From IMG/VR virus record IMGVR_UViG_3300031963_000683, positions 1 to 29,626 of that record: DNA of 29,626 nt, one strand, 5' to 3'. Under the pieces are notes generated by a model that ran no database searches, was not told the DNA's origin, and was given only the letters and a program-made list of their open reading frames with translations. Positions 2,069-24,088 of this stretch are shown one piece after another. The translations under genes were made by a program, and so were the position numbers. Numbering within the stretch: position 1 is the stretch's first letter; every line of letters starts with the position of its first letter. This DNA is from a virus (Duplodnaviria; Caudoviricetes).

Positions 2069-3575
2069 CTGGCATGCCTCCGCCTTGGGCCATCATTTGA
2101 GCGGCCTGCTCGGCCATGATCTGCTCGTCCGACTTCATGACGATGTGGCGTTCCTTCGCCGTGGCGATCAGGTTCTCCATCGTGGCCTTGGCATCGACCG
2201 GCACGCCGACCTGCATGGCCCCTCCGATGCTGGCGGCCATCGACAGCACCTGCCCCGTGAGGTTCATGTCCTCGAGATCCTTGGCCTTGGACAGCGGGCT
2301 GATCGGCCGGCAGTTCACGATCTTGCCACCCTTGAGCTTGACCTCGGGCAGCACGCCGCGCTTGGCGAGAATCCACGCCACGCGCTCGATGATCGGCAGC
2401 ACCCACTCGCGGACGCAGCGGTCGCGCGGCAGCTCCTTGCGGCGCGTGTTCCACGCCTTCTCGTCCATCCACTGACCCAGCGTCGGCGGCGTATCGCCGG
2501 GCTGCTCGGGACGGTCCTGGTAGCAGGCGCGCTTGATGCCCTTGCGCATCTCGTCGGCGGCGAAGAACGAGGCGTCGAACCGCACGTCCGGCAGGAAGGC
2601 CTCGGGCGCCTTGGATTGCGGCGCGCGGGCGAAGCCCTTGCCGGGCTCCATGCCGCCGTCAAAGTTGGCGAGGCCGTCCTCCTCGTAGGAGAAGGCCGGG
2701 TCGATCGTGCGGCCCAGACCCTTAAGGTTCAGGTACGCAAGCTCATCCAGCACGCGAGCACGCGGCGTCGCCTTCTTGAACGGGCCGGGGCCCCACGCGG
2801 AATCGGCCTGCTGGCGAAAGCGGCAGGTGATGATCGGGCAGGAGCCGGCACCCTCATAGGTGAGGTTCACCCGCTCCTTGTCGTCGACGAAGATCCGGTA
2901 GCTCCACCGCTCAACGCCCGGCGTCGACCAGTCGCGGTCACAGCCCTCGACGATCCGTTGCTTCTTGTCCTTGCCGACACCGCTGAACGCTGGAAACTCT
3001 TTCCCCATCGACGCGCCCCAGAGCATGTTTTGCTCCGCCTGGGTCAGTTTCATCTCACGCCACTTGCCGGTCACGGACCCGTCGGGGCCGCGCTCCATCA
3101 GCAAGTCGGGAATCTCGATCGGCTGGAAATGCAGCGGGTTCAGCGGCCCCATGTCCGACAGGGCCACCGCCATCGCCGACACGCCCCAGTACGCGAAGCA
3201 CTCCTGCGCGGCGTCCCAGTAGTTTGACCGCTCGATCTCAGCGAACACGGCGTCGCCGATCGCGGCGAGCTGAGGCGCGATCTCGCGCTTCTGGCCCTCC
3301 GACAGGTCGTCCGCCGGCTCGAACATCACCCACCGCTCGTGGCGCGGGGTGAAGGTCGAGATCATGTCCGACGCGAAATCCTCGGCGACGATCTCGAGCT
3401 CATTGTCGAACTGGTCGTCCTGCTCCTCAATGCGGAGCGAGGAGTCGGATCGGTCGTTGCATCGGCGATAGGTCGGCAGCGCCAGGCGCAGCGTCTCGTC
3501 AATCCATGTCGCGTGACGCGCCTTGTCCTGCCTCGCTGCGGCAACGCGGGCGAGGATCTGTTTGGCGTTGGCCAT
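2052..3575 (-). CDS. Portal protein (T7/BPP-1-type head-to-tail connector)
   Basis: 507 aa; IERSNYW, RFRQQADSAWGPGP and PISPLSKA motifs; Q/M/A-rich tail; synteny with terL and capsid. Confidence 0.9.
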   Translation of the reverse strand: MANAKQILARVAAARQDKARHATWIDETLRLALPTYRRCNDRSDSSLRIEEQDDQFDNELEIVAEDFASDMISTFTPRHERWVMFEPADDLSEGQKREIAPQLAAIGDAVFAEIERSNYWDAAQECFAYWGVSAMAVALSDMGPLNPLHFQPIEIPDLLMERGPDGSVTGKWREMKLTQAEQNMLWGASMGKEFPAFSGVGKDKKQRIVEGCDRDWSTPGVERWSYRIFVDDKERVNLTYEGAGSCPIITCRFRQQADSAWGPGPFKKATPRARVLDELAYLNLKGLGRTIDPAFSYEEDGLANFDGGMEPGKGFARAPQSKAPEAFLPDVRFDASFFAADEMRKGIKRACYQDRPEQPGDTPPTLGQWMDEKAWNTRRKELPRDRCVREWVLPIIERVAWILAKRGVLPEVKLKGGKIVNCRPISPLSKAKDLEDMNLTGQVLSMAASIGGAMQVGVPVDAKATMENLIATAKERHIVMKSDEQIMAEQAAQMMAQGGGMPDVGAA

Positions 3576-3883
3576 CAGTACATCACCGAGAGGCTGCGGT
3601 CAGCGGAGCCGAAACGCGAGCCGCCGGCGAAAGCGGTGCCAGACCCCGCGCCTGAACCGCCGGGCGAGCCGACGCCGGGAGTCATCGGGCCGCCCACGAT
3701 CGGGACGGACCCGCCACCGCCGCCGGGCAGCGAGCCAAAACGGCGGTTGCGCCGTCCGGTTGCCCCCAGCAGCCAGGCTTGGGTCTCCTCGGTGCGCGCG
3801 TTCTCAGCCCGACGCTCCTCACGCTCGCGCGCGGCTTTCGTGGCCGGATCTTCTTCGGGAAGCGTGACCTTCGGAGTCCTCAT
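3575..3883 (-). CDS. Small Gly-rich virion protein upstream of portal
   Basis: ATG 3883 overlaps the upstream stop (ATGA); MRTPKVTLPEED, charged helix, then Gly-rich tail; stop overlaps the portal start. Confidence 0.65.
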   Translation of the reverse strand: MRTPKVTLPEEDPATKAAREREERRAENARTEETQAWLLGATGRRNRRFGSLPGGGGGSVPIVGGPMTPGVGSPGGSGAGSGTAFAGGSRFGSADRSLSVMY

Positions 3884-4308
3884 GCCTGCCTGCTCTCGAA
3901 CGCGGGTCGCGCACCTTGAGCAATCAGATCGCGGTAGAAGGCCTCCGGTCTCAACGCACGGGACCGCGCGCCGACCAGATGCGCGACCGCCGGCGTGCAC
4001 CAGAAGCCAATGCGGACGCCGGGCTCAACAGGCTCGCCGACCGGCTCGAACGCGACGATGCGGCGGTTGTCCGGCAAGGCCTCGACCCATGCGTCCATCT
4101 GACTGGGCGTCAGCATGCGGATCAGGGTACGGCGGGTCGTGACGTCGTACAGCAGCCACGCGGCCTGCTCGGCGCAATAGCCGAACGCGGCGACGTGGCG
4201 AAAGCCAACGCGGCACAGGCTCGACCACCAATACCGCCGATCGCCGTCGTAAAAAGCGACATACCAATGCGGCGGCATGCCCGAGAGAGCGTCGTCGGTT
4301 TCGATCAT
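3880..4308 (-). CDS. Hypothetical protein, possibly permuted papain/NlpC-P60-like
   Basis: 142 aa coupled to the terL stop; His (FRHVAAF) precedes Cys (FWCTPAVA) and a RPEAFY tail. Confidence 0.6.
   Translation of the reverse strand: MIETDDALSGMPPHWYVAFYDGDRRYWWSSLCRVGFRHVAAFGYCAEQAAWLLYDVTTRRTLIRMLTPSQMDAWVEALPDNRRIVAFEPVGEPVEPGVRIGFWCTPAVAHLVGARSRALRPEAFYRDLIAQGARPAFESRQA
3926..3959 (-). promoter_or_regulatory. Putative late promoter copy 2 (GTGCG-TTGAGA-N17-CGATCT), inside a CDS, upstream of the portal block
   Basis: Same 9-mer and same CnnnnT spacing as the other copies. Confidence 0.45.
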
Positions 4309-6893
4309 CGCCGGGCCCGGAACAGCGGCGCGCGCGATCCGCGATCGAACACCCGCGCCTGCACCTTGGTCTGTACTGCGGCGACGTTGCGGCCGGCACC
4401 GAACAGCAGGTTCCCGCCCTCGCCCATACCCAGCAGGAGGTATTGGAACGCGTCACAGTTCGAGACCAGCGCGCCCTCCACGTAGAAGACGTGCTCGTTT
4501 TCGACCTCTAAGTCATAGACGGGTAGCGAGCCGTAGAGCCGCAGCGGTTCGACCCGAACAACTCTTGGAGCAGTGCGTGACCTTTGAATATTTGTTGGTG
4601 CGGAAGCCGACGCCGCACTGAACGCAGATCCGATCCACGTCATCCACGCCGGAAGCCCTGCGGGCCATGCCCTGACAGGACATGGAGCAGAAGCCCTTTT
4701 TTCTGTAGCCGTATTTGACCCAGTAGGGCTTAGCGCACCAGACGCACTCGTGTTGCTGAGGCTCGCGCTTTGAGGCGTCGAGCTTGGCGGCGGCGCTGGC
4801 GCGTCGGCGATATTCTGGGCACTTCTTTGCCTCAGCAGCTTTGAGCCGCATGGTAGCCAGAAACCCCGCGCAGTTTTGCGGCATAGGTCCGTCGTGAATC
4901 CAGTGGTGCTTTGCGTGATCCTCCGCGTGCATCGCCTCCAGATTTTCGATTGCGTTGTTGGCTGCGTCTCCGTCGACGTGGTGGATATGATGGTCATCGG
5001 GGATCGGCCCGTGATGGTGCTCCCAGACGACGCGATGCATGTAGCGCCCGCCAAACTTGGGGTCGCAGCGGTAATAACCGCTGGGGCCGGGTCGACGGTA
5101 ATAGCGCCGCCCGTTGAACTCTTGGATTGGGTACTTCGCGGGTCTGCCCATGAATCACATTCTCCGACTAGGAGATCATTATACTGCAAAGCATCAGCAC
5201 GCACAAAACGCACGCCATCAACAGCGAAGTGATGCTCGGGCGTGCAAGTGATCTTGCGGCCATTGGAGAGATGAACCTGCACCAAGTCGGACGCGGGGCG
5301 GTTCATGCAGGCCGCGACCCTCTGCGCGCCATTTGGGGTCAGGACGAGATCACCGGGCTGAAGCGTCTCAATCGGCACGCGGCCGGACGGCGTGCTCACC
5401 AACGTCCCGGCCACAAAGCAGGTGTGACTGTACTGGTTCTTGACGACGTCGTCGGAGACGAACTCGCCGAACGAGGACTTGGTGACCTTGAACTGGTAGC
5501 CGCCGCTCAGGCCTTGCACCAGCATGCGGCAGCCGGGGTCAATCATCAGCGCCTGATAGCCGTCGACCTGACGCTCGAGCAGGCTGTCGACCACCTCCTT
5601 GCGCCCGCCGACCTTGGAGAAGCGGTTGGCGCCGGGGGCCGGTCGGACCGGCATGCCTTGCTGGCGGAAGATGTCGAACGGGGTTTGCTCGTCGGTCTGT
5701 GACCGGACGGCGCTGCCAGGGTCGCCGATGAACTTGACGCGCGCCAGATCGAGGCCGCCGAAGCGGCGCAGGATCTCGCGCTTGACCACGGGCGCGAAGC
5801 TCACCGCGCCGACGCCCTCGGCGTAGAGCTCGCCCAGCACGAAGACGCGGCCGCGGATGGTCTGGCCAAACACGACCGCCGGCGTCAGGCCGAAGTCCAT
5901 GCCGACGTAGAGCTCCAGCTCGGGATTGAACTTGAGCGCGTTCGGGCTGACGTGGCTGTTGCGCTCACCCTCGCCGCGGAACAGCGGGTGCACCGCCTTA
6001 CCCTTCATCTGGCTGGCGGCGATGTTGCGGCAGTTGGCGTCGATCCACTGGCGCGTCACGCCGTGGATTTTCTTGGGGTAGTAGTCCGGCCTAAGCCAGC
6101 GCAGGTTCTCGGCGCCAGGGTTGACGCAGTACTCGACCTCGTCGCCCGGATTCAGCGGCTCCAGCCCAGAGGCCTTCAGCGCATCGTCCAGCACCAGCAG
6201 CGCCGGCGGCTGGACATACAGGCACCAGCCGGGCGGGCGGCGGTGCTTCTGCACGTCGTCCGGCGTGAAGTGGTCCGGCACGGGCGCCTTGCCGAACATG
6301 ATGGGCGCCCAGTGCAGGCTCTCGGGCGCGTTCATGTCAGCGATGCCGCCGGACCAGTTGCACCCGCCGTTCTTGACGGACGGATAGCGGCCGCAACGCG
6401 ACAACCCCTCCGTCACCAGCATCAGGCTGATGTACTGAAGCTCGTTGAAATAGATCCCGGTCAACTGCAGCGAGCGCAGCTTCTTGACATCGTCGTCTTT
6501 GTCCAGCGCGAGGAAGATGAACTCGGCTTCCATGTCGCCGTAGCGCATGTGGTAGGTGAACGGCGGCGACCACGACATCTCGCCGAAGCCGCCCTGCGCC
6601 TCCGAGCCCTCGGGAAACAGGTTCACGAACGAGGGGATCGTCGTCGTCTTCAGCTCAGGGAAGGTCGAGCGGACGATGGCGAAGCGGGAGCGCCGGACCT
6701 TATCGCCTTGCGGCGGTTGCTGACTTGCATGCCGGAACAGGCGCATGATCGCGGCGTCGGTCTTGCCCGAGCCGATCGGCCCCTGGATGATGTCGAACTC
6801 ATTGTCCGCGAGCAGGAACGCCGACAGGATTCGGCCATCAGGCTCAAAGCGGATCGGCTCGCGCGGTGGTTGGGATGCTGCCTTGCGGGCCAT
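4305..6893 (-). CDS. terL: Terminase large subunit precursor containing an intein
   Basis: Walker A GPIGSGKT, Walker B-like YFNELQY, nuclease motif VGMDFGLTPA, C-terminal SHT|CDAFQY interrupted by the intein. Confidence 0.93.
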   Translation of the reverse strand: MARKAASQPPREPIRFEPDGRILSAFLLADNEFDIIQGPIGSGKTDAAIMRLFRHASQQPPQGDKVRRSRFAIVRSTFPELKTTTIPSFVNLFPEGSEAQGGFGEMSWSPPFTYHMRYGDMEAEFIFLALDKDDDVKKLRSLQLTGIYFNELQYISLMLVTEGLSRCGRYPSVKNGGCNWSGGIADMNAPESLHWAPIMFGKAPVPDHFTPDDVQKHRRPPGWCLYVQPPALLVLDDALKASGLEPLNPGDEVEYCVNPGAENLRWLRPDYYPKKIHGVTRQWIDANCRNIAASQMKGKAVHPLFRGEGERNSHVSPNALKFNPELELYVGMDFGLTPAVVFGQTIRGRVFVLGELYAEGVGAVSFAPVVKREILRRFGGLDLARVKFIGDPGSAVRSQTDEQTPFDIFRQQGMPVRPAPGANRFSKVGGRKEVVDSLLERQVDGYQALMIDPGCRMLVQGLSGGYQFKVTKSSFGEFVSDDVVKNQYSHTCFVAGTLVSTPSGRVPIETLQPGDLVLTPNGAQRVAACMNRPASDLVQVHLSNGRKITCTPEHHFAVDGVRFVRADALQYNDLLVGECDSWADPRSTQSKSSTGGAITVDPAPAVITAATPSLAGATCIASSGSTITGRSPMTIISTTSTETQPTTQSKIWRRCTRRITQSTTGFTTDLCRKTARGFWLPCGSKLLRQRSAQNIADAPAPPPSSTPQSASLSNTSASGALSPTGSNTATEKRASAPCPVRAWPAGLPAWMTWIGSAFSAASASAPTNIQRSRTAPRVVRVEPLRLYGSLPVYDLEVENEHVFYVEGALVSNCDAFQYLLLGMGEGGNLLFGAGRNVAAVQTKVQARVFDRGSRAPLFRARR
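4458..5420 (-). mobile_element. Intein (321 aa) in TerL
   Basis: Block A CFVAGTLV, block B TCTPEHHF, block F VYDLEV, block G ALVSN followed by Cys+1; removal restores KNQYSHT-CDAFQY. Confidence 0.93.
4513..5151 (-). CDS. HNH homing endonuclease with C-terminal Cys zinc fingers, nested out of frame in the intein
   Basis: MHRVVWEHHHGPIP..HIHHVDGDAANNAIENLE HNH motif; CVWC..FCSMSC and CVQC..HCSKSC; own RBS GGAGA 9 nt before ATG. Confidence 0.9.
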   Translation of the reverse strand: MGRPAKYPIQEFNGRRYYRRPGPSGYYRCDPKFGGRYMHRVVWEHHHGPIPDDHHIHHVDGDAANNAIENLEAMHAEDHAKHHWIHDGPMPQNCAGFLATMRLKAAEAKKCPEYRRRASAAAKLDASKREPQQHECVWCAKPYWVKYGYRKKGFCSMSCQGMARRASGVDDVDRICVQCGVGFRTNKYSKVTHCSKSCSGRTAAALRLATRL

Positions 6894-20577: not shown

Positions 20578-22202
20578 GCCGCTTGCTCCTGTGATTGAGT
20601 GAAGCGGCGCGAAGCAATGTTCCACCACTTTCCGTTTTTCTGAATTCCAATGAAGGCGGGCTGCGAAAGCTCGCTCCAACGCACCAGCGCGTCCTCGATC
20701 GTGTCCGGCACCGGCAATCGCCCGCCATGCGCAACCCACCACTTCTCAGCGCGGTATCGTCCGGGCCCGCTGTGTTGCAGCAGCACCCACTCGGGGTAGG
20801 ACATCAGCCCGGCCGAGTAGGTGACGCGCAGACTGTCCGGCGATCCGGCCTTGACGTGCCGACGCGCCATCCAGGTGACGACCGGGATCTCCTCCGGCGG
20901 CTGGTTGCGCAGATCCCGTGAGAGGATCGCGACGTCGTCCGCCTCAGCGTCGTGCCGGGCCTTGTCGAGCGTCCATTCGTGGCCACAGAAGGCGCAGGTC
21001 TGGGCGTTAAGCGCGGCGAGGGACTTGCAGGTCGGGCACTCCTTGGCGCGGACGTCCGTGACCTTCGCCGCGTCGGGCGCACCCTTCTTGCCCGGCCGAC
21101 GATCAACGGTGAGCGTGTCGACTGGGCCGAGGCGGCGGATCGTGCCGGTGTAGTCGAGCACGAGACAGTCCGCTTTGCCCTCCGCCAGTCGGGTGCCGCG
21201 GCCAAGCATCTGCACGAGCAGGCCGGGCGAGAGCGTCGGACGCAGCAGCGCGATCATGTCGAGGCCGGGCGCGTCGAAGCCGGTCGTCAGGACGTTGCAG
21301 TTGGTGAGGCAGCGCAGGCGTCCGGCACGGAAGTCGTCGATGAACCGGGCCCGGTCGCCCGGATGCGTCTCGCCAGAGATGACCTCGCACGACACGCCCT
21401 GCCGCACGAACTCGTCGCGGACATGGTGCGCGTGCTTCACGCCGGCGCAGAACGCCAGCCACGATCGCCGCCCCTCGCCGAGCGTGATGATCTCCGAGAC
21501 GGCAGCCTGGGTGACTGCGTCGTCATCTGCCGCGGCCTCGAGGGCGCCGGAGACGAACTCCCCTCCCCGCTTGGCCACCATCGACACGTCGATCTCGGTC
21601 GCGCCGGACTTGGACACCAGCGGCGACAGCCAGCCGTCGTCGATGCCTTTGCCGATGCCGTAGGAGAACACGATCTCGTCGAACAGGCGGTCCTTGCCGT
21701 CGTCGAGGCGACCCGAGTCCATGCGGAACGGCGTGGCGGTGAAGCCGGCGACACGCAGGTCCGGCCGCATCTCACGCAGGGCATCGAGCAGGTGCCGGTA
21801 CATGCCCTCGCCTGCCGACGGGACCAGATGCGCCTCGTCGATCAGGACCAGGTCGAACGCGCCGAGCTCCTTCGCCCGCCGATAGACCGACTGGATGCTG
21901 GCGAAGATGATCCGCTGACTGGTGTCGCGCCGGCCGAGACCGGCCGAGTAGATGCCGACAGGGGCTTGCGGCCAGAGGGAGAGCAGCGCCTTGGCGTTCT
22001 GGGCGACCAGCTCCCGCACATGCACGAGCATGAGCACGCGCATCTGGGGGTAGGCGCCCATGAGGCGCTGCGTCAGGTCGCCGATCGTGACGGACTTGCC
22101 GAGGCCGGTCGCCATGTCGACGAGGGGGTTGCCGCCGCCCCGTTCCCAGTATGAGAGGACGGAGTCGATGGCGGCGGATTGGTAGGGGCGGAGTTGGGTC
22201 AT
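20574..22202 (-). CDS. SF2 DEAD/DEAH helicase (RadD/YejH-like) with zinc finger
   Basis: LRPYQ, ATGLGKS, DEAH, TATP, LTTGFD, QMLGRGTR, CPTC..CAFC. Confidence 0.93.
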   Translation of the reverse strand: MTQLRPYQSAAIDSVLSYWERGGGNPLVDMATGLGKSVTIGDLTQRLMGAYPQMRVLMLVHVRELVAQNAKALLSLWPQAPVGIYSAGLGRRDTSQRIIFASIQSVYRRAKELGAFDLVLIDEAHLVPSAGEGMYRHLLDALREMRPDLRVAGFTATPFRMDSGRLDDGKDRLFDEIVFSYGIGKGIDDGWLSPLVSKSGATEIDVSMVAKRGGEFVSGALEAAADDDAVTQAAVSEIITLGEGRRSWLAFCAGVKHAHHVRDEFVRQGVSCEVISGETHPGDRARFIDDFRAGRLRCLTNCNVLTTGFDAPGLDMIALLRPTLSPGLLVQMLGRGTRLAEGKADCLVLDYTGTIRRLGPVDTLTVDRRPGKKGAPDAAKVTDVRAKECPTCKSLAALNAQTCAFCGHEWTLDKARHDAEADDVAILSRDLRNQPPEEIPVVTWMARRHVKAGSPDSLRVTYSAGLMSYPEWVLLQHSGPGRYRAEKWWVAHGGRLPVPDTIEDALVRWSELSQPAFIGIQKNGKWWNIASRRFTQSQEQAA

Positions 22203-24088
22203 GCGGCCTGCTCCAGCGACCGAACCGCCTCGACAGCCTGGATGCGCTCACCGATCCAGCGCATGCACGGAACCGCCATGCTGTTGCCCAGAGCCTTGTA
22301 TCGAGGGCCGTCAGCGGCGGGCTTTCCGCGATGCGGGACGGAGGTGTAGCCGTGGTGCGTCGTGAACCTAATCTCGTAGGAACAGCCGCTCCGCATTGCC
22401 TCGGGAATGAACCCAGCCATGGCAATCGCCACACAGCAGGACAAGGTTTCCAGTGTCGAGGCGAAGGTCGGGTCGTTTGACCCAAGTGGCGATGTGGTGG
22501 ACCTCGAACATCGGGTCAGGCCGTCGATGAACCACGCCGCATCGCTGGCACGTTCGGTGATCTCGGGCCCAGACAGAGCCACAAACGCGCTTCCATTCAG
22601 CGGATGAATAAAAGGCTTGGTGCTCTGTGGTGATTCCGCCCTTCCAATGCGGGTTGAGTTCGCCACGGCGGCGTTCATGAGCACAGCCAGGAGAGCAAAA
22701 GCGTCGCTCGGCATAGGTGGGAGAGACGAGCTTTCGAGTTCCGCAATGCTCGCAGACCAAGACGACTTTCCGGCACTGTGTAGCTGAAGAACCTGCCGCT
22801 CTAAGTCGATCAGCACATTGACGGCCACAGGTGCGCTTGGCCCGAGCGCGAGGGCTGCTGAACCCCTCGCCGCAGACGACGCAAGCGCGTGTTTCTCGTC
22901 CTCGCTTCTGCATACGAGAATCCTGAGCTCATTCGTGATTTCGGGGAAGCCCTGAAGGCGCTCGCATTCGCGGGGGGTTAGGCGGCGGACGGCGGAGCCG
23001 GCTGTGAGCAGGCTTTCCGCAGTGTCGGCGTCGGTCCCCTGCGGTCGGTTTCCGCCTGTGGCGTTCCCCCCGGCCCGAAGCGTGGGGCTTGCGCTGACGT
23101 GCGCCACCGCTTGCGGCACGGTCCGAGCTTCCAGCGTGTAGGCGGCATCATCTGACCTGAACCCAGCACCGTCAGGCCCGGCGTTCGGGTTCTCGCAGAC
23201 GGCGCGCTCCTGAATGGCGTAAGCCACCGCGGGCTGGACAATGTAATCCCCGCCCTGGTTTCCCCCCGTAGGCCCCGCAGCCATGACGGGCTGCGATACG
23301 TTCGTCTCCCGGCCCTTGAAGTCCTTGCCGCTGTTCATCGGCATGATGGAGAACGCCACAGGCACGATCGGCGTCCCGCGACCCGTCCCGTCCTCGCTGG
23401 CGTCGAAGCCCTCGCCCTTGAGGGTGTGGGCGATCAGGTGACCGGCCTGTCCCTGGTTGTCGTCCGCGCCACAAGTTCCAACGCCGTTTGCAGTGAGCGC
23501 GGCAACGCCCGGCCCCTTTTCTCTGCGCGGCGCAGGATTCCCCGACAGGCTGTGGCGCTCAAATAGAACCGCTGCGGCACGTCGCCAGTCTCCAAGGTAT
23601 CCGACAACGAACACACGGCGGCGGCGCTGGGCCACTCCGAAGAACTGAGCGTCAAGGACTCGGTAGGCGACGCCATACCCGAGTTCGACCATGCCCCCGA
23701 GAATGGCTCCAAAGTCCCGTCCTCCGTTCGATGACAGGACGCCGGGGACGTTCTCCCACACCAGCCATCGGGGCCGCAGTCGGTCAGCCAGCCTAAGATA
23801 TTCGAGGGCCAGGTTGCCCCGGTCGTCATCCAGTCCGCCTCTGAGCCCGGCGACGCTGAAAGACTGGCAAGGTGTTCCTCCGACCAAAAGGTCGATTGGC
23901 TCGTATTCGCCAGCCTTGATCGTGGTGAAGTCGCCATGAAGCGGGGTCTCCGGGTAATGGTGAGCAAGGACCGAGCGCGGGAACGCCTCGATCTCGGAAA
24001 AAAACGACGCCTTCCAGCCAAGCGGATGCCATGCGGCGGACGCGGCCTCGATGCCGGAGCAGACGGATCCGTAGGTGAGCGCACTCAT
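22199..24088 (-). CDS. C5 cytosine DNA methyltransferase carrying a ~196-codon in-frame insertion
   Basis: CSGIEA (I), GGTPCQSFS (IV), WENVPG (VI), QRRRRVF (VIII), RRLTPRECERLQGFP (IX), YKALGNSMAV (X); ATG 24088 by ATGA overlap. Confidence 0.92.
   Translation of the reverse strand: MSALTYGSVCSGIEAASAAWHPLGWKASFFSEIEAFPRSVLAHHYPETPLHGDFTTIKAGEYEPIDLLVGGTPCQSFSVAGLRGGLDDDRGNLALEYLRLADRLRPRWLVWENVPGVLSSNGGRDFGAILGGMVELGYGVAYRVLDAQFFGVAQRRRRVFVVGYLGDWRRAAAVLFERHSLSGNPAPRREKGPGVAALTANGVGTCGADDNQGQAGHLIAHTLKGEGFDASEDGTGRGTPIVPVAFSIMPMNSGKDFKGRETNVSQPVMAAGPTGGNQGGDYIVQPAVAYAIQERAVCENPNAGPDGAGFRSDDAAYTLEARTVPQAVAHVSASPTLRAGGNATGGNRPQGTDADTAESLLTAGSAVRRLTPRECERLQGFPEITNELRILVCRSEDEKHALASSAARGSAALALGPSAPVAVNVLIDLERQVLQLHSAGKSSWSASIAELESSSLPPMPSDAFALLAVLMNAAVANSTRIGRAESPQSTKPFIHPLNGSAFVALSGPEITERASDAAWFIDGLTRCSRSTTSPLGSNDPTFASTLETLSCCVAIAMAGFIPEAMRSGCSYEIRFTTHHGYTSVPHRGKPAADGPRYKALGNSMAVPCMRWIGERIQAVEAVRSLEQAA
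22352..22939 (-). mobile_element. In-frame insertion in the MTase, consisting almost entirely of an out-of-frame HNH gene
   Basis: Interrupts the normally contiguous LQGFP-x-x-YT; no intein blocks; boundaries uncertain by 1-2 codons. Confidence 0.75.
22368..22913 (-). CDS. Zinc-finger HNH endonuclease nested out of frame in the MTase
   Basis: CVVC..TCGRQC and CEHC..FCSPGC fingers, NPHWKGG, RDHRTCQRCG..EVHHI..NLVLLCGDCHGWVH; AGGA RBS 7 nt upstream. Confidence 0.9.
   Translation of the reverse strand: MQKRGRETRACVVCGEGFSSPRARAKRTCGRQCADRLRAAGSSATQCRKVVLVCEHCGTRKLVSPTYAERRFCSPGCAHERRRGELNPHWKGGITTEHQAFYSSAEWKRVCGSVWARDHRTCQRCGVVHRRPDPMFEVHHIATWVKRPDLRLDTGNLVLLCGDCHGWVHSRGNAERLFLRD
23434..23937 (-). 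CDS. Alternative-frame MTase partner polypeptide (EcoHK31I beta-like arrangement)
   Basis: +1 frame ORF with GGAGA RBS 9 nt before ATG 23937; ends in SLSDTLETGDVPQRFYLSATACRGILRRAEKRG. Confidence 0.7.
   Translation of the reverse strand: MATSPRSRLANTSQSTFWSEEHLASLSASPGSEADWMTTGATWPSNILGWLTDCGPDGWCGRTSPASCHRTEDGTLEPFSGAWSNSGMASPTESLTLSSSEWPSAAAVCSLSDTLETGDVPQRFYLSATACRGILRRAEKRGRALPRSLQTALELVARTTTRDRPVT

Follow-up and report, generated by a model that had tools for sequence, protein, structure and literature searches.

A hidden HNH endonuclease gene in the open frame of a phage C5 cytosine methyltransferase, probably a homing element carried without splicing

The window analysed here is the whole stretch of 29,626 nt, an entire 29.6-kb phage contig with portal, capsid, primase, GcrA-like, RusA and helicase genes. 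On its minus strand, an HNH endonuclease gene was found nested inside a C5 cytosine methyltransferase (MTase) gene. The features of the locus are listed below.

22199-24088, minus strand: host C5 cytosine MTase ORF, 629 aa from its ATG (PF00145, TIGR00675)
22352-22939, minus strand: dual-coding insert of 588 nt, host aa 384-579; its boundary slides by 1-2 nt
22368-22913, minus strand: HNH endonuclease gene, 181 aa (PF01844), with CxxC modules and a C-terminal HNH core
22910-22939, minus strand: predicted N-terminal stalk strand, host-frame aa 384-393 (from the model, hydrophobic pattern and charge pairing)
22352-22378, minus strand: predicted C-terminal stalk strand, host-frame aa 571-579 (from the model and hydrophobic pattern), overlapping the HNH stop codon
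22920-22925, minus strand: where the family has its -10-like box, 6 nt ahead of the HNH start codon; CAGGAT in this contig, a 3/6 match
22940-22987, minus strand: motif IX region (RRLTPRECERLQGFP-E), the flank upstream of the insertion site
22280-22351, minus strand: GYT linker and motif X (YKALGNS), reached in translation only by reading through the insert
23434-23937, open to 24084, minus strand: second overlapped ORF in the N-terminal half of the MTase, not part of the insert

The host was assigned to the C5 MTases by motifs IV, VI, VIII, IX, and X together with an HhaI-like fold; PCQ lies at aa 73, ENV at 112, RRLTPREC at 368, and YKALGNS at 597. The MTase frame runs open through the whole insert, and its stop codon overlaps the ATG of the downstream helicase gene (22199-22202). 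The HNH ORF occupies the same strand in another frame, the host frame being HNH frame +1. The insert starts (22939) 26 nt before the HNH ATG and continues for 16 nt after the HNH stop, in agreement with the distances given by an earlier reading made from the letters alone (the sequence-only reading). The insertion site lies between motifs IX and X, whose spacing is 214 aa here versus 18 aa in close empty alleles such as that of locus L089; the net insert is therefore 196 codons, which leaves 433 aa for a protein without it. The nested HNH ORF and the 196-codon excess over empty alleles established that the HNH insert proposed at 22352-22939 is real, and the MTase sizes expected with and without it, 629 and 433 aa, agree with the ORF length and the net insert. 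The split had been placed between LQGFP and YT..YKALGNS; the site was correct, but the exact edges were not, since they fall between FP-E and G-YT, where E and G are host residues.

Contigs from the DNA runs X3 and X4 spanned the insert with no differences. A contig from DNA run X12 joined 22353 to 22944 with two other letters, which is an empty-site FP-D-GY allele. In runs X19 and X21, which are probably DNA, related inserts appeared only as short fragments. Coverage by X22, the single confirmed RNA run, did not extend to the insert. Joined forms in runs X19, X21, X22, and X23 carried other letters and are empty alleles of relatives.

Since a collection that found only open frames had to be avoided, related loci were gathered by the HNH alone. 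This yielded 80 viral, 29 metagenomic, and 2 genomic loci (Sphingomonas fennica and Thalassospira aquimaris), 112 with this contig. The C5 motif IX-X site holds 91 of the 112, of which 81 were assigned by pattern and 10 by reading translations (L026, L032, L034, L035, L041, L060, L072, L186, L187, and L195). Across the HNH match, all 91 C5-site loci had 0 stops in the host frame, compared with 2-27 in the third frame, whereas 20 of the 21 loci in other contexts had 1-7 stops in the equivalent frame. After reduction to 68 elements (non-redundant at 95%), the C5-site set contained 0 stops versus 278 expected from synonymous recoding and 159 from codon shuffling, while 15 other-context elements showed 54 stops against 61 expected. 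The elements are diverse (median HNH identity 46%, GC 30-63%), and they are kin, so that the counts do not represent independent events. In a protein search with the MTase C-terminal region, the best 120 listed matches were 36-100% identical over 94-100% of its length. The hosts themselves appeared intact: motif IV, ENV (motif VI), and GN[SAG] (motif X) were kept in one ORF in 52 of 56 untruncated hosts, and flank substitutions fell mainly at third codon positions (52/66). The host frame is kept open beyond chance and is under selection. Had host-frame stops been common in homologous inserts, simple gene disruption would have been indicated; the opposite was seen.

Several loci departed from the common layout. 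In L038 (924-3179) the C5 MTase is split, and its N-terminal ORF nests a second nuclease-like ORF (1540-2095) in another frame, besides the HNH element. In L053 (1201-3155) the host MTase forms two ORFs, one N-terminal (248 aa) and one C-terminal, with the insert still open; in both hosts the split lies upstream of the insert. L072 and L195 (~2207-2939) hold a truncated element, the C-terminal HNH part only, joined to a motif X tail without a catalytic domain. The invaded MTases of L034 and L056 seem to bear also an intein ending at the catalytic Cys (HNC), and P0234, in which motif X comes ahead of motif VIII, seems to be a circularly permuted C5 MTase.

The sequence-only reading had seen too little room for a group I or II ribozyme and ends that lack the intein Cys/Ser1 and terminal Asn. 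Both observations held. With 26 and 16 nt outside the HNH ORF, neither a ribozyme core nor splice-site nucleotides of a group I or II intron were found, and Rfam gave no family on the insert, its single weak match (E 3.9) falling outside. Folding of the insert gave z -1.24, and no terminal repeat stood out. Among the 62 elements with both ends resolved, own ends paired better than mismatched ends in 28 only, which is chance level; the best conserved 5-bp end helix was no better than after shuffling (0.706, compared with 0.698 and a maximum of 0.710 for shuffled ends), the ends gave an empty consensus fold, and neither a 5' U nor a terminal G was conserved (G in 5/62). At the protein level, the first insert residue of the 62 elements was mostly I/V with no conserved Cys, Ser, or Thr, the last showed no terminal Asn (H 12, S 7, Q 6), and the following residue was Gly in 49. 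The conserved Cys/Trp near the 5' end arises because the HNH start codon is read in the host frame (ATG-C as TGC). None of the marks of an intein (a Hint domain, Cys or Ser as residue 1, and a terminal Asn or Gln followed by Cys, Ser, or Thr) was found in the insert; the scan that found no Hint domain in the MTase ORF detected one in another gene of the contig. An 862-aa ORF at 4305-6893 on the minus strand, adjoining the portal gene, carries a Hint/intein domain. The RNA routes were rejected on the fold score, the lack of terminal repeats and Rfam families, and the chance-level pairing of the ends, and removal by bypass, RNA processing, or intein-like excision gained no support from the ends of the 62 elements.

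The same reading had suggested that the MTase tolerates a loop of ~196 aa whose alternating-hydrophobic ends form a beta-hairpin stalk. The ends were compared in 169 inserts, comprising the 62 loci and 107 database proteins that passed the pattern. Insert positions 1, 5, 7, 9 and -9, -7, -5 were mostly hydrophobic, the last three in 94-99% of the inserts, and proline was nearly absent from the two ends (2/1690 and 2/1521). Position -5 was written with 15 different codons, which indicates a constraint at the protein level. Opposite charges were paired across the ends at antiparallel registers 0 and -2 only (z 5.8-7.2 at three redundancy cut-offs, with 114-154 non-redundant inserts), led by the position pairs (8,-8) and (2,-4), while the other eight registers gave |z| < 1.4. 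Part of the 5' alternation may stem from the promoter box described below and not from the protein alone.

An AlphaFold2 model of the MTase, built on an 83-sequence alignment, placed strands at 384-393 (pLDDT ~88-90) and 571-579 (pLDDT ~89-93) and motif X at pLDDT 92-97; the model bears on the stalk through its secondary structure and confidence output rather than strand-strand contacts. Against M.HhaI, residues 2-626 were aligned with Z 29 and rmsd 2.6-2.8 over 238-254 residues. The insert interior was mixed (pLDDT 44-83), with its variable region not resolved. Consistent with the stop-free frame, hydrophobic pattern, charge pairing, and model, the insert ends likely behave as paired antiparallel beta-strands, and the proposal of a tolerated loop on a hairpin stalk was strengthened. 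Seven gap-free comparisons showed interior host-frame identity to equal third-frame identity (for example, 69 vs 70%, 51 vs 49%, and 54 vs 56%), indicating that most of the loop drifts with the HNH. A wobble bias in 32 of 98 HNH columns, compared with 1 of 16 control codons, had raised the idea of broad amino-acid selection on the loop interior; it was discounted because of these equal identities, and shared ancestry may explain much of it. A search of the ESM Atlas with the host-frame insert gave no usable match, which speaks to neither absence nor novelty.

The first 29 nt of the insert carry a further signal. In 54 of the 62 elements, the HNH start codon (ATG/GTG) lies at exactly +29 nt, counted from the Phe-Pro codons. 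The match to TATAAT peaks sharply at offset +17 (mean 4.18/6; 25/62 elements score 5 or more), which puts a -10-like box 6 nt before the start codon; TG precedes the box in 23/62, and no Shine-Dalgarno motif precedes the HNH start in 51/62. The host-synonymous T17 was present in 43/62 elements versus 19.8 expected, a level reached in 0 of 2000 recodings. The signal holds at a 60% identity cut-off and weakens in divergent subsets (6/2000 at 55% and 58/2000 at 50%, where 8 elements are left). In sigma-70 promoters, a -10 box at such spacing implies a leaderless transcript. The conserved box suggests, as a reading of sequence, that the HNH mRNA is leaderless in most family members. In this contig, the box CAGGAT contains the Shine-Dalgarno-like AGGA and a promoter scan called no site there; the HNH here may thus start from a Shine-Dalgarno motif on the longer mRNA. 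A hybrid promoter taking its -35 box from the host Phe-Pro codons was not supported as a selected feature, because empty alleles score equally (3.1 vs 3.1). A trade-off between the -10 box and the Shine-Dalgarno motif (Fisher p 0.001) was not counted as evidence, since both motifs occupy the same bases and the trade-off is partly built in. Among eight elements whose HNH start is shifted downstream, three (L017, L024, and L179) have a clear Shine-Dalgarno motif ahead of it.

Occupancy was surveyed in the 80 viral relatives whose catalytic domain is nearest to that of this MTase, 16 of which were left unscored because the pattern failed or the contig ended. Three of the 80 were invaded, two identical to this contig plus L091, and most other close relatives had 14-21 residues between motifs IX and X. 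The L089 allele shares 98% identity over the catalytic domain but has no insert. A quick tree was made from 41 invaded and 56 empty alleles, leaving out L038 and L053 as split; on it the occupancy label needs 8 changes, of which only 2 are forced by strongly supported branches. Near-identical hosts were seen with divergent elements (87% against 47%; 83% against 52%), and host and HNH identities correlate (Spearman 0.62). The distribution among related methylases is patchy as read from this quick tree and a biased sample; given the correlation, the few forced changes, and empty alleles sampled only near this contig's MTase, module recombination could explain some of the patchiness. Homing of the element is likely on these patterns.

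The closest known layout is that of the ShiLan domain, published in 2025 (PMC11855218; see also PMC9957025). It is a stop-free 202-aa insertion in the mycobacteriophage methylase gp65 with an HNH hidden in the third frame, for which its authors propose a looped-out, hairpin-like, unspliced insert and leaderless initiation (PMC11855218). By these sources (PMC11855218, PMC9957025), ShiLan and the C5 element have in common an in-frame, stop-free insert of ~200 aa in a phage methylase, an HNH with zinc-finger modules at the same frame offset and with its start and stop near the insert ends, no intron or intein signature, and a patchy distribution. The two HNH proteins are 31% identical over 126 aa (pairwise E 9e-6). 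The host and site are different: ShiLan gp65 has a DPPY motif of the amino-MTase type (read from L086), whereas the host here is a C5 MTase that matches ShiLan gp70, not gp65, and the insertion is at C5 motif IX-X rather than at the gp65 site. Direct comparison of the two host-frame inserts gave no significant similarity, a search with the host-frame insert gave no phage match, and no mycobacteriophage was among the 60 HNH matches listed of 78. The C5 family is also far broader than ShiLan, with its 68 non-redundant elements, median HNH identity of 46%, and GC of 30-63%.

The C5 element has the stop-free methylase frame, the alternate-frame HNH filling nearly the whole insert, and the lack of intron and intein signatures that mark the ShiLan type; the gp65 host family at its site and an insert homologous to the ShiLan domain, which mark the ShiLan family, were not found. 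As judged by sequence, it is a ShiLan-type hidden HNH by kind, outside the ShiLan family proper: the hidden-HNH layout is known already, and the host class, site, and insert sequence are different here. The words 'promoter', 'purifying', and 'cytosine' are absent from the main text of the ShiLan paper (PMC11855218), and a literature search that barely covered subscription journals turned up no publication that deals with a C5 motif IX-X family, stalk covariation, or an internal promoter. Intron and intein homing endonucleases likewise sit in highly conserved motifs, have empty cognate alleles, and include HNH nucleases; unlike them, the C5 element lacks a splicing device, and its host appears to be spared by overlapping frames and a putative protein stalk.

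The ShiLan paper also describes an insertion in Pacc40 gp60 and free-standing HNHs upstream of methylases in Sashimi and Tiff81 (PMC11855218). What these share with the C5 family is nesting together with free-standing kin beside methylase genes; the host and site of the Pacc40 element differ from those of the C5 element. Among our loci, L061, L069, L078, and L079 have free-standing HNH relatives directly upstream of amino-MTase-like ORFs, which possibly represent the source state for nesting. In L083 (1958-3980), an amino-type MTase (SPPY) nests a related HNH (2242-2803) with an identical frame offset; its host frame contains no stop, and this insertion is at a second, independent site. L065 and L066 (~2288-3809) have the same amino-MTase site, but a stop and what appears to be a frameshift upstream interrupt the host frame; this may be a decayed copy.

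Taken together, these data make it quite probable that the insert is a non-splicing homing element and that the MTase carries it as a 196-residue loop on an antiparallel beta-hairpin stalk. The MTase would be translated straight through the insert, with the 196 extra residues as a loop, and the insert ends would pair as an antiparallel beta-hairpin, thereby reuniting motifs IX and X. The HNH would be a separate product initiated at its own start codon, likely on a leaderless mRNA from the -10 box within the first 29 nt in most of the family, and more likely through the AGGA at the same spot in this contig. The HNH would then cleave or nick alleles that lack the insert, near the FP-D-GYT codons, and repair would copy the element into them. 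MTase activity with the loop, the transcription start, cleavage, and homing are what we infer here.

An invaded MTase could instead be dead or weak, its frame being held open for translational coupling to the helicase or against transcriptional polarity. The overlap of the MTase stop with the helicase ATG at 22199-22202 would fit such a role, as would the insert interior, which shows no general host-frame conservation, and the methylase studied in PMC11855218 is non-essential according to that paper. Nevertheless, we consider a dead MTase unlikely, for 52 of 56 hosts retain their catalytic motifs, the flanks change mainly at third codon positions (52/66), and the strand pattern with its cross-strand charge pairing is sensible only if the protein must fold. 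Removal or nicking of the translated insert as protein, by non-canonical splicing or host proteolysis with the hairpin holding the MTase halves, would likewise need an open frame and could use the paired ends. Split C5 MTases do exist, M.EcoHK31I being one (PMC2836561), and the model gives the insert interior only partial confidence (pLDDT 44-83). However, the missing Hint domain, the first and last residues without conserved Cys/Ser/Thr or Asn, and the Gly after the insert (49/62) make such excision very improbable. Least credit goes to removal from RNA or skipping by the ribosome, through a minimal intron, an enzyme-spliced intron, or bypass, which we regard as highly improbable: insert lengths are multiples of three and this contig's own insert ends hold a 7-nt inverted repeat, whereas in the 62 elements end pairing was at chance, the consensus fold empty, and splice-site nucleotides absent, and Rfam matched nothing on the insert. 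Neither bypass nor RNA removal would require a stop-free host frame, which counts against both.

The C5 family gives population-level answers to three questions left open by the ShiLan paper, namely whether such an insert is tolerated, whether selection keeps the frame open, and by what means the hidden HNH is expressed (PMC11855218). The C5 motif IX-X site appears to accept insertions of ~200 residues carried by a short stalk. Nested nucleases are easy to miss, because the long MTase ORF is all that gene callers report here. In a wider reading, which we hold as a real possibility while leaning slightly against it, these are old, widespread, splice-free homing elements with a multi-coded adapter, in which 29 nt would serve as strand, promoter or ribosome-binding site, and start, and a co-evolving hairpin would let an active MTase carry a partly folded domain of ~200 residues that arose de novo from the HNH's second frame. 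If true, selfish genes would have, in addition to introns and inteins, a third means of residing within conserved motifs.

The second overlapped ORF (23434-23937) has the same offset in 80 of 80 close MTase relatives, with 0-1 stops, was matched in 38 of 62 invaded hosts, and hits PHROG 16143 'DNA methyltransferase' (E 1e-6). We take it to be like the beta subunit of M.EcoHK31I, and by this analogy it is probably a beta-type subunit, in which case the gene would encode three proteins. In M.EcoHK31I, the alpha and beta subunits come from an MTase gene with a second ORF in another frame (PMC2836561); the likeness concerns the N-terminal overlap of the host, not the insert, and this host keeps its own motif IX.
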